Virus genome (UHGV): UHGV-0071249
Length of the DNA stretch: 34,343 nucleotides
Source of the DNA: a virus
Reading direction: 5' to 3' (one strand)
In this document: piece after piece, positions 12,494-15,901 of the stretch
How positions within the stretch are numbered: position 1 is the stretch's first letter
Layout of the letters: the number at the start of each line of letters is the position of its first letter
Translations under genes and position numbers: made by a program
Notes under the pieces: model-generated
Told to the model about the DNA's origin: nothing
What the model saw: the letters and a program-made list of their open reading frames with translations, nothing else
Databases searched by the model: none

Positions 12494-14019
12494 TGTTTTG
12501 GAAGAAAAAGCCACAGGCACAGCCGCGACCACAAGTAAAAGCAAAACCAAGTCAGAAACGTTTCATTGAAAAACCTGCATTAACTATGAAGCGTGATTTA
12601 CAGGCAGTACGCGGAATGAGTACACCAGTAATTAGTTTTGGATTTACTTCCGGTACTGGTTCACAAAATATCAATAACTTGATTCGCTGGTTCCTAAGTG
12701 ATTGGCGTAATGCTTCACGTGAGGCAGTGCTAAAGAATCCCCTAGGTAGTAAGTACATGAACCTATCTGTAGATGGCGTAGTAGGTGCGGAGGGTGTTTA
12801 TATTAAGCCAGCCCCAACTATTGAGGGTATGACACCAGACGAACTACAGGAACTCTCACAGCGTCTTGAAAAGCATTTTGACCGTTGGGCTTATGATGCA
12901 GACCGTTTTAGCCTAGATGGTTCTATGACCTTTGATATCTTCCAACAGACAGTAGAGAAGATTCGCGTACAGGACGGTGAATGTTTTATCCGTATTCATA
13001 ATGTGAATAACACAGTAAAACTTGAAATCATTGATGCCGCTCGTCTAACTCAACTAAATAACCAGTGGTTAGACAATGGGAATTACATCTCAAATGGCGT
13101 GGAATATAACCAATACCGTAAACCAGTAAATTATTACTTCTGTATCTACAACCCAATTACCTATACATATGATGCTACGGCTTTTGAAATTATTCCGGCT
13201 AAGGAAATCTGTCATTACTTCATCCCTCAACAGATGGGACAGGAACGCGGTATACCGGATATGATCAGTACTAGCAAAACTATGGAAGACTTAAAGAATT
13301 TTACCGAGGCAGCATTAATTGCAAAACGTATTAGTGCAAGTGCTACGGCGTACATTACTAATAATAATAATGATACTGACCAAGTAGAATTAGTGGCGGG
13401 TGAAACTGATAGTACTGCAACATACTCTGAATATCTTGAACCGGGTGCAGTATTTGAACTAGGTAAGAATCAGGATATTAAAACAGTTAGCCCAAGTAAT
13501 GGTGCTGATAAAATAGGTGAATTTACTAGTGAACTAATGGATCAAATCGCAATGGGTCTAAACGTCACTAAACAATCCCTAATGGGTAGTACTGCTGATG
13601 CTAGTTTCTCAGCCGCGAAACTTGCAGAACGCCTACAGGCAACCACATTTAGAACTCGTAGTAATGTCCTAATTAGTCGAGTACTAAAACCAATCTATCT
13701 AGAATGGATGAAATGCGAAATGCTAAATAATAGTAATCTCAATATCTCTTTTAGTGATTTTGATGATGCTATTTGTGCTCGCTATATTCCAGTAAAACCA
13801 ATCTCCCTAGATGCTACTAAGGATATTCAGGCAGAGATTATGTTACTTGATGCAGGGCTTAAATCTAAAACTCAGATCATTAGTGAAATGGGTGGTGATC
13901 CTCGCATAACTCTAGAAGAGATTGCAAAAGAAAAGGAAACAAACACACAGGGAAATACAAATGGAATTGAACCTAAAGAACCAGAAGAGGGAACAGACAG
14001 TACCAGTAACAGCAATTAA
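12478..14019 (+). CDS. Portal protein (lambda gpB-like)
   Basis: 513 aa, immediately downstream of terminase and upstream of protease/capsid; an alternative TAATG-coupled start lies at 12493. Confidence 0.75.
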
Positions 14020-15901
14020 TGTTGATAACCGTACTATTGAAGTAGCATTTGCTACGGAAACTCCAGTTAGCCGTGAACTCGAAGGTGAACTATATTATGA
14101 AATCCTCCTATGTGATGAAACCTCTGTAGACCGCACCCGCATTAATAATAAAGGTGCAGTACTCTTTAATCATGATCGCGATAAATTACTAGGTGTAGTT
14201 GAATCTACAACTATTGGTGCAGATCGCGTATGCCGTGCAACCCTACGTATTAGTAACGTAGGACTTGGTAATACTATGTGGTCAATGATTCAAGAGGGAA
14301 TTCTATCACATGTTAGCGTTGGCTATAACATTTACGATTACCGCATTGAAGCAGGTAATAACATTGTTGTTACTCGCTGGGAACCAAGCGAAATTAGCCT
14401 ATGTTCTGTACCTGCTGACATTAATTCAGGTATCGGACGTAGTGATAATTTTGAATATGAACTTGATACAGCCCATGAAGACGATTCACTAAATAGTAGT
14501 AATGAAACCAGTGAAGAGGAAAGACTCATGGAAGAACAAGAGGGAATGGAAGAAACCCGCCTAGATATTGAATCCTACGATATTAAAGAAACTTTAAAAG
14601 TAGATAATGATGAAAATGGCGGCGTAGCTAACATTGAATTAAGTGATGGTGAATTAGAAGAGATGCTTTCAAAGCGTCCCGATCTGCTAGCTAAACTTCA
14701 AAACAAAGGCGTAGAGCCTGAAACACTAAATAGTAATGATCCAGTAGAAAGTGAAGATACACGTGCTGTAGGTGATTTTAGTGATGCAGACGGTAAAGTA
14801 AATCATCCAGAAGATATGGAAGATGAAGCCGAGAAAGCAGAACAAGCTCGCAAACGTGAACTTGAATCTATTGGTTCAGTACTGAATGTTGATGTATCAG
14901 AAGCAATTGAAAAAGGAATTTCAATTACTGATTTCAAACGTTCACTAAATACAAATAACAAAACTCCTAACGTTAAGGAAAACAAAATGGAAAAATCCGT
15001 AATTAATGGTCTAATTCGTCAAGCAGCCGAAGGTAAACCATTCGAAGGTGCTCGTGTTGAAGTACCAGTAAGTCAACTACGTACAACCTCTACTGCTCCT
15101 GCTACTGGTGGTGCTCTAGTTAAAGAAGTGTATGTAGATTCTTATATTGATGTTCTACGTGCTAACTCTGTATTTGCACAACTACCAATTCAAACTTTCT
15201 CTGGCCTGGAAGGTGAAGGTAATCTAGTACTACCAAAACTATCTTCTGATTTCACTGCAATGTTTGATTTCATCGATGAAGGTGCTGATTCCCCACTAGT
15301 TGATGCAAACTTTGAAAAACTAGTACTTAAGCCTAAAACCTTCTCTGGTTCTGTGCCAATTACCCGTACTCTAATTAAGTCTGCTGATACCGCAGAACGT
15401 TATGTACAGGATGCAATGGTACGTGGTGCTGGCCTAAAACTAGAAAAAGAAATTCTAGGTCAAATCGTTACCACTGCTCCAGTTGAAACTCTAACTGCTG
15501 CAATTACCCAAGGAGATGTACAAGGTGCTCTAGGTAAACTAGCTGCTGCAAACGTTCGTATTGATGAAGTAGTAGCAATCGTACACCCAACTACCGCAGC
15601 TATTCTACGTAGTACTATTGTTAGTGGTAACACCGCAGCTAAATTCATGATTGAAGGTTATCGTTTCGAAGCATATCTATGTGACTCTGTACGCGTTATT
15701 GAGAGTACTCAAGTAGAAGCAGGTTCTATTATCTTTGGTGACTTCTCCAATGTTGTACTTGCTTCATGGGGCGGCCTAACTGTAGATCGTGATGATACTA
15801 CTCTACGTGCTTCACAAGGTATTGTACTACGTACATTCGCTTATATTGACCACGCAGTAGCACACGAAGAAGCATTCCTAGTAGTTAAACTAGCGGCTTA
15901 A
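13961..15901 (+). CDS. Fused prohead protease (HK97 S78/U35-like) - acidic scaffold-like linker - HK97-fold major capsid protein
   Basis: N-terminal motifs [19 protein letters not shown] and [14 protein letters not shown] are protease-like; middle about 170 aa is highly acidic; C-terminal about 300 aa is capsid-like; one uninterrupted reading frame. ATG 13961 preferred over the TTG at 13922. Confidence 0.7.

Follow-up and report, generated by a model that had tools for sequence, protein, structure and literature searches.

The prohead protease and the major capsid protein are joined in one gene product of 600–680 aa, encoded after a lambda-family portal gene, in a number of isolated phages: roseophage vB_DshS-R4C (R4C; gp6; PDB 8GTA), the Rhodobacter RcA-cluster phages, the Vibrio phage VP882 and the Halomonas phage phiHAP-1 (Hapunavirus), the E. 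coli phages ECO1230-10/ep3 and the Burkholderia phage Mica. Database records call these products 'major capsid protein'. Here we describe a gene of the same architecture in the UHGV virus genome UHGV-0071249, a stretch of 34,343 nt that is referred to throughout as the window, in which a single open reading frame (ORF) on the + strand specifies a prohead protease, a linker and an HK97-fold capsid protein. The isolated-phage fusions are 26–32 % identical to the window protein, and none of them comes from the low-G+C enterobacterial prophage clade to which the window belongs. Their candidate internal translation start is found directly behind the protease domain, and not at the position of Met343, which is the candidate internal start best supported in the window's clade.

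HK97 itself provides a further comparison. Its gp4 and gp5 resemble the window gene in the S78 protease family and in the capsid fold, and the N-terminal scaffold extension of gp5, which is cut off after a basic residue, has a putative counterpart in the window protein, with Lys103|Ser104 of HK97 aligning with Arg374|Thr375 of the window protein. In HK97, however, protease and capsid protein have a gene each and packaging of the protease is non-covalent, whereas the window has one ORF and an extra acidic spacer of ∼130 residues. Nested in-frame genes for protease and scaffold are established in lambda (C/Nu3) and in herpes simplex virus 1 (HSV-1; UL26/UL26.5). For HFTV1, the nesting of gp17/gp17.5 has recently been shown by ribosome profiling, and the short nested product is described as setting stoichiometry and targeting the protease into the procapsid (bioRxiv 10.64898/2026.09.13.751334). 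In each of these three systems a long protease product is accompanied by a short in-frame product that shares its C-terminal assembly module, which is the likeness to the arrangement that we propose for the window gene. There the two products share a scaffold, with the capsid protein encoded by a separate gene, whereas the products of the window gene would share the capsid protein itself; for the window gene, moreover, we infer internal initiation from a conserved in-frame Shine–Dalgarno (SD) sequence and ATG.

The fusion in itself is of minor interest, as head modules are commonly laid out in this way and the layout has been named before; what is new here is comparative evidence that points to a nested gene within the fusion. 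The label 'major capsid protein' on products of 600–680 aa hides both that the mature shell protein is the last ∼270 residues and that a protease and a scaffold reside in the same gene. We put the probability of our overall explanation, a genuine fusion whose product is processed and which probably contains an internal start, at about 65 %. If true, internal starts would explain how the phage avoids building in one protease and one 24-kDa linker per capsid subunit (∼17 MDa in a T=7 shell). They would also constitute a third arrangement for the control of stoichiometry, alongside separate genes and nested protease/scaffold genes, namely nested protease/scaffold/capsid genes, and would extend to the capsid protein the principle of lambda C/Nu3 and herpes UL26/UL26.5. 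The real primary products of such genes are relevant to structure prediction, to proteomics databases and to studies of defence systems in which a capsid or protease protein is sensed.

The fusion is genuine and widespread

The fusion gene runs from an ATG at 13961 to a TAA at 15899–15901 and its full-length product has a computed mass of 70.7 kDa. The maximal ORF starts at TTG 13922 and would specify 659 aa; RefSeq-type records of the identical protein use the 646-aa form. Across this stretch the two other forward frames contain 49 and 102 stops, and the antisense ORFs that overlie it (60–63 aa) are without support. The gene and the parts of its product, apart from the candidate internal starts that are given further below, are as follows.

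13961..15901, + strand: whole fusion gene (646 codons and TAA; end-to-end match to PHROG 617; identical protein in E. coli)
13949..13955, + strand: SD-like AGGGAAA that precedes the main start and lies within the 3′ end of the portal gene (anti-SD duplex −5.1 kcal/mol)
13961..14440, + strand: prohead serine protease domain, residues 1–160, with a folded core at ∼20–160 (His71, Ser119, Glu144)
14171–14173, 14315–14317 and 14390–14392, + strand: codons for His71, Ser119 and Glu144, respectively
14438..14443, + strand: candidate autocleavage site Arg160|Ser161, where the protease domain ends (conservation; analogy with HK97 Lys103|Ser104)
14441..14824, + strand: acidic spacer, residues 161–288, mostly predicted to be disordered (composition, AlphaFold2, alignment of close relatives)
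14825..14953, + strand: confidently predicted helical module, residues 289–331, similar to delta/scaffolding domains (AlphaFold2, profile alignment)
15080..15085, + strand: predicted maturation cleavage site Arg374|Thr375 (aligned with HK97 Lys103|Ser104 and R4C Arg352)
15083..15898, + strand: predicted mature HK97-fold major capsid protein, residues 375–646, 28.9 kDa (PF05065, PDB 8gta, Foldseek)

The identical protein was found on 125 contigs, mostly from E. coli, and relatives with 78–96 % identity from Klebsiella, Enterobacter, Salmonella, Citrobacter and other genera are ∼640–650 aa long and carry both Pfam domains. All 17 of the close relatives that were aligned (79–96 % identity) keep one ORF, with invariant blocks in the linker. 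This bears out the single-ORF fusion of protease, linker and capsid protein proposed in the first-pass annotation, which had been made from the letters of the window alone. A search of 1.84 billion cluster representatives (50 % identity) returned 5,752 relatives; among the best 150 of these, 139 are 550–700 aa in length, and most have two matching stretches, protease and capsid. At the loci for which DNA was available, one ORF held both the protease motif and the capsid domain in 87 of 97 cases.

The same annotation had set the fusion against HK97 and lambda, where these genes are separate or nested, but the architecture is widespread and has been named in several collections. PHROG 617 (major head protein) aligns with residues 3–643 over profile positions 4–622 of 626 (E-value 3e-88), phrog_4523 is entitled 'major head and protease protein', and NCBIfam holds a family NF045541, 'prohead protease/major capsid protein fusion protein'. 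In SEA-PHAGES genome papers, 'capsid and protease fusion' is listed among the standard genes (Arthrobacter, Microbacterium and Rhodobacter RcC phages). Isolated phages with this layout also include Arya, S-LBS1 and RcCronus, within the same range of 26–32 % identity. As all of the isolated phages are at or below ∼32 % identity, the prophage clade is therefore an unstudied example of a known architecture. Megablast over 15 kb against a collection of 50,697 isolated-phage records found no near-identical DNA. The papers on JBD30 and on CBASS deal with architectures other than this one. A point on the other side is the match to NF045541 (E-value 3e-37), which, at 128.4 bits, falls far short of the cut-off of 525 and is restricted to residues 20–328, the N-terminal half. 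Judged by such profile matches, the window protein is of a different sub-family from NF045541 with the same architecture. We regard it as virtually certain that the fusion is real and that it belongs to the recognized protease–capsid fusion family.

That a missed frameshift or stop, or the decay of a prophage, has made separate genes appear as one is a negligible possibility. Some E. coli relatives are indeed annotated as two genes, and shortened versions of 501–588 aa exist. In the two-gene E. coli case, however, the terminase and portal genes are also broken and the break in the fusion gene falls inside the capsid domain, which denotes decay and not an ancestral state. Furthermore, the single ORF is found intact in isolated phages and in hundreds of independent assemblies, and the window has no separate capsid gene. 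A frameshift or assembly artefact, which the earlier reading had itself named as a way in which the fusion might be illusory, was ruled out by the identical E. coli proteins together with the counts given above (17/17 single ORFs, 139/150 by length and 87/97 by locus).

Among 5,426 complete E. coli genomes we found only two copies, both decayed and ∼73 % identical, despite the 125 contigs that carry the protein. The relative prophage in E. coli SI-NP020 (NZ_AP024130.1, 1831562–1845252) is decayed, with its terminase in three pieces and its portal in two; the fusion gene is divided inside the capsid domain into an 'HK97 family phage prohead protease' of 442 aa and a 'phage major capsid family protein' of 158 aa. 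It is an instance of automatic annotation making a fusion look like two genes. Escherichia phage DCP80 (PQ671644.1, 5789–7789) gave the only isolated-phage match over 99 % of the query, at 26.5 % identity, and its fusion homologue is recorded as an unannotated 'hypothetical protein'. The 141-kb DCP80 record is classed as Straboviridae/Tevenvirinae, an odd home for a head module with a lambda-family portal and an S78–capsid fusion, and may be chimeric or misclassified.

Protease, capsid and linker domains

The N-terminal domain is an HK97-type (S78, assemblin-fold) prohead serine protease, and we predict it to be active. Pfam Peptidase_S78 matches residues 63–157 with 35.8 bits, above its curated cut-off of 21, so that the proposed fit to prohead protease profiles was found, and the protease motifs stand where they had been placed (FNHDRD at residues 69–74, HVSVGY at 117–122 and a third motif at 144–153). 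The domain tested positive for an Assemblin/T4 gp21-like fold, and AlphaFold2, supplied with a 97-sequence alignment, modelled residues ∼20–160 confidently (predicted local distance difference test, pLDDT, above 90). We take His71 and Ser119 to be the catalytic pair by homology to His65 and Ser114 of HK97 gp4. In 140 of 140 diverse fusion proteins His71, Ser119 and Glu144 are invariant, with Tyr122, Ser146 and Asp153 nearly so; the protease is therefore taken to be under selection as an enzyme. One could instead imagine a dead protease fold that serves as scaffold mass, with maturation left to a protease of the host or to a different phage protease. The score of 40.6 bits against the NCBIfam equivalog TIGR01543 (proheadase_HK97), below its cut-off of 59, would fit this and tells against our own interpretation of the domain. 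Given the invariance of the three residues, and with no other protease gene in the head module, we nevertheless hold a dead protease to be very improbable.

At the other end of the protein, Pfam Phage_capsid (PF05065) matches residues 383–643 with 57.8 bits (cut-off 24.2), and AlphaFold2 gave a confident C-terminal domain at ∼395–646 (pLDDT 77–93). PDB 8gta was matched with an E-value of 1e-14 by the window protein and 3.9e-81 by the family profile. In a Foldseek search with the C-terminal domain, 8gta ranked first (E-value 2.8e-17), followed by phiXacJX1, HK97 (1ohg, E-value 1.7e-13), D3, SaPI1 and RcGTA. The R4C gene has 629 codons, and the deposited capsid chain comprises the C-terminal 268 residues. 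The first residue of this chain aligns with Gly383 of the window protein, nine residues after Arg374|Thr375, and R4C Arg352, which aligns with Arg374, is ten residues ahead of the first solved R4C capsid residue. The column of Arg374 holds Arg in 73 of 97 sequences, followed by A, T, S or G, and Arg160 is present in all 97, with Ser next in 66.

From the invariant catalytic residues and the R4C structure we infer self-cleavage, and autoproteolytic maturation near Arg374 appears quite probable. The capsid domain would co-assemble into the procapsid shell, with linker and protease carried inside. The protease (His71/Ser119) would then cut after Arg374, and probably after Arg160, leaving a mature capsid protein of ∼28.9 kDa as in roseophage R4C. 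Several considerations speak against this scheme: the first residue of the R4C chain may be merely the first that was modelled, the R4C papers make no comment on processing or on the protease domain, and every step beyond one ORF with three modules is our interpretation of sequences. A marine-phage proteomics paper is likewise silent on processing and on the protease domain.

Protease and capsid domains are separated by a linker of 214 residues. The first-pass annotation had placed here a strongly acidic, scaffold-like middle domain of about 170 aa. Strongly acidic it is, over residues 161–300 (33 % Asp + Glu, net charge −32, isoelectric point 4.05), although this amounts to ∼140 residues and fills the linker only partly, residues 301–374 being neutral to basic. 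The scaffold-like character had to be reassigned, as the acidic segment is predicted to be disordered. AlphaFold2 gave mostly low confidence for the linker, the exceptions being helices at 289–331 (pLDDT 84–89) and a weaker helix at 229–247. When aligned with the capsid proteins of D3, RcGTA and 7rwz, the family profile reaches into their N-terminal delta (scaffolding) domains, and the helical, non-acidic part at ∼289–374 is therefore the scaffold-like one, with the acidic stretch as a spacer. The window protein by itself aligns weakly with the HK97 delta domain.

Residues ∼219–250 (14615–14710) form a nearly invariant block of the linker in relatives at 79–96 % identity, with variable, acidic flanks. 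The block lies in the low-confidence region around the weak helix, and a possible role is docking to the capsid interior, to the portal or to the protease.

Candidate internal translation starts

Two candidate starts were identified within the gene, together with a conserved segment that would form the leader of a short product.

14974..14989, + strand: candidate internal start 2, with the strongest support within the clade (TAAGGA at 14974–14979, 7-nt spacer, ATG at 14987–14989, Met343; product 304 aa, 32.4 kDa)
14987..15082, + strand: conserved 32-residue segment 343–374, leader of the putative short product (consensus S..AIRA...G....RG..VP..L..R)
14516..14530, + strand: candidate internal start 1 (GAGGA at 14516–14520, 7-nt spacer, ATG at 14528–14530, Met190; dG −6.0; product 457 aa, 49.5 kDa)

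An internal Met in the sequence MEKSVINGL had been suggested to permit separate expression of the capsid protein. The Met is present, as residue 343 rather than 344, and the suggestion is strengthened by comparison within the clade. In 22 of 23 clade genes (38–100 % identity) AAGGA stands 6–11 nt before an in-frame ATG, and the residues that precede this start vary (NVKENKM, HDKEIKM, DKDINKM, IKEDKQM, IIKDDKM and others). Lys339 is encoded by AAG in 20 of 20 genes, against a gene-wide AAG fraction of 0.21, and Lys342 by AAA in 16 of 17. When the codon alignment was scanned for synonymous conservation, scan windows over residues 335–342 ranked 3–9 of 470, and only the 3′ end of the gene was comparable. 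Nine loci at 42–100 % identity keep both the motif and the Met343 ATG; ATAAGGAA is found also at their genuine gene starts, where the window fusion gene has AGGGAAA. A family-wide role for Met343 was ruled out: the column lies in a clade-specific insertion and holds Met in 22 of 140 representatives, and the start is therefore a feature of the clade.

In order to describe starts just after the protease domain across the family, we took 85 complete fusion genes, which formed 55 clusters at 60 % identity. Of these clusters, 52 possess an in-frame ATG 8–75 residues past the PAD motif, and in 49 the first Met falls at +16 to +45 past this motif (the rough geometric expectation, from ∼2.3 % Met, being ∼42 %). 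Anti-SD pairing at the post-protease ATGs has a median of −6.0 kcal/mol, whereas for 620 further in-frame ATGs in these genes it is −2.4 (p 6.5e-11). A dG of −5 or lower is reached in 67 % of post-protease windows but in 26 % of matched 67-codon windows elsewhere (p 2e-10), and at −8 kcal/mol the proportions are 29 % and 3 % (p down to 5e-13). Synonymous shuffles at these starts gave a combined p of 6e-5, and the mRNA there is less structured (z +1.25 versus the whole gene, p 2.5e-12; +1.09 versus the linker only). Examples of such an SD and ATG are cggaggacgcaATG in R4C, cagaggtgcagaaATG in VP882 and taaaggaggccaaaATG in locus L089. Six clade members (L008, L025 and L028–L031) are without a Met after the protease and all six keep the Met343-type start; on this comparison of genes, the post-protease start is dispensable in the window's clade.

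It is conceivable, if doubtful, that Met190 and not Met343 is the functional start, giving a 49.5-kDa 'delta domain + capsid' protein, with the signal at Met343 having some other cause. A post-protease SD and ATG is found in most other lineages, including R4C, VP882, phiHAP-1, ECO1230-10 and DCP80, and the window has GAGGA-N7-ATG with a dG of −6.0. The Met190 product would also keep the delta-like helices; HK97-type capsid proteins need delta helices for assembly, as in HK97 gp5. What speaks for Met343 instead is the loss of the post-protease Met from the six loci just named, the lack of a good SD in L009, and the retention of the Met343-type SD and ATG, under synonymous constraint, in 22 of 23 genes. 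The two starts are not mutually exclusive.

A proposed nested organization of the fusion gene

A search of the + strand inside the fusion gene returned no promoter-like site, with counts at chance level. An internal promoter for the short product, after the model of herpes UL26.5, was thus rejected, which leaves internal initiation of translation as the route to any shorter product. On the comparative evidence, we judge the use of internal initiation in vivo to be somewhat better than an even chance, and a nested organization of protease–capsid 'fusion' genes across the family, with a long chain and a protease-less capsid precursor, to stand only just above even. A search limited to open-access PMC and bioRxiv found no prior description of internal initiation in protease–capsid fusion genes.

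According to the nested-gene proposal, initiation at Met343, and possibly at Met190 too, would yield a protease-less capsid precursor, of 32 kDa and with a 32-residue leader in the case of Met343, and protease-bearing chains would be a subset, in fact a minority, of the shell subunits. In most other clades, translation from the Met 16–45 residues past the protease would produce a 'delta + capsid' protein resembling HK97 gp5. The long chain would bring the protease, and in the window's clade also the scaffold helices, into the procapsid, covalently tied to a capsid subunit. Procapsid crowding is a plausible motive for an internal start: a T=7 shell made solely of full-length chains (415 subunits) would enclose 17.3 MDa of protease and linker, or 36–54 % of the procapsid interior if the inner radius is assumed to be 21–24 nm.

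A less likely account, to which we still assign appreciable weight, is that the gene has a single product. All capsid subunits would then be the full 70.7-kDa chain (1:1:1), and the internal SD and ATG motifs would not be starts but relics of separate genes, by-products of purine-rich acidic coding or SD-like pause sites. The full-length chain is certainly made, because the frame is kept open across the family, and in addition 19–26 % of background sites reach −5 kcal/mol and the per-gene synonymous shuffles are weak. A pause site or relic, however, leaves unexplained the ATG at 6–11 nt in 22 of 23 clade genes, the AAG codon in 20 of 20 and the top-ranking synonymous constraint, as well as the first Met at +16 to +45 in 49 of 55 clusters and the less structured mRNA. 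A T=7 procapsid would, moreover, have to hold the ∼17 MDa of protein that internal starts would spare it.

Several observations detract from internal initiation, our preferred reading. The SD sequences are of modest strength, as −6 kcal/mol is attained at 10–26 % of background sites; a coding sequence so rich in purines and in codons for acidic residues yields extra SD-like matches; and the per-gene synonymous shuffles have a median p of 0.21. The clusters share ancestry, and with clustering at 40 % an ATG is present in 22 of 23 lineages and dG ≤ −5 is reached in 13 of 23. The mRNA around Met190 (−4.5) and Met343 (−3.7) is not notably open when compared with the gene as a whole (−4.8 ± 2.5). 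Finally, the Met343 product would be without the delta-like helices, and its ability to assemble is therefore uncertain.

Genomic context

The order of genes is conserved among related loci: large terminase, a head–tail joining-type gene of ∼180 aa, lambda-family portal, fusion gene and two small connector genes. A separate protease, scaffold or capsid gene was never encountered in the related loci, and none is present in the head module of the window. The modules of the window (serine recombinase, HNH, TerS, TerL, portal, fusion gene, connectors, tail tube, tape measure, Dit and J-like fibre) fit a siphovirus-like enterobacterial prophage.

The portal gene (12478–14019) overlaps the start of the fusion gene by 59 nt (13961–14019), and an overlap of 25–65 nt is kept in all of the related loci examined, which suggests coupled translation of portal and protease–capsid. 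At the opposite end of the gene, residues 634–643 (15860–15889) show the strongest excess of synonymous conservation in the clade codon alignment. The next gene begins with an ATG at 15907, 5 nt past the fusion gene stop, without an obvious SD, and the conserved stretch is 18–47 nt upstream of this ATG and hence outside SD distance. For this reason the 3′ end was not kept as positive control of the scan for synonymous constraint; termination–reinitiation coupling and RNA structure are both possibilities for the constraint.

The element has a G+C content of ∼37 % (0.32–0.41 along the window), although E. coli, from which a capsid protein identical to its own is reported, has a genome of ∼51 % G+C. 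Relatives are spread across Enterobacter, Klebsiella, Salmonella, Citrobacter and Phytobacter. The left end carries a large serine recombinase of 617 aa (61–1914; PHROG 95 integrase / invertase families) and an HNH endonuclease (2592–3083), and this region is probably the prophage integration module.

Two genes have a major-tail-protein domain (PHROG 158), at 16642–18324 and at 21200–21670, the latter of normal size (156 aa). The former specifies 560 aa, of which residues 3–138 are tube-protein-like; the remainder matches tail-fibre families and contains repeated units of ∼30 residues (…TINGxxLxGNITLxAADIxDVYSxT…). The protein has the appearance of a tube protein fused to a fibre, and its gene precedes that of a 952-aa tail protein; some relatives have a Peptidase_S74 fibre gene in its place.

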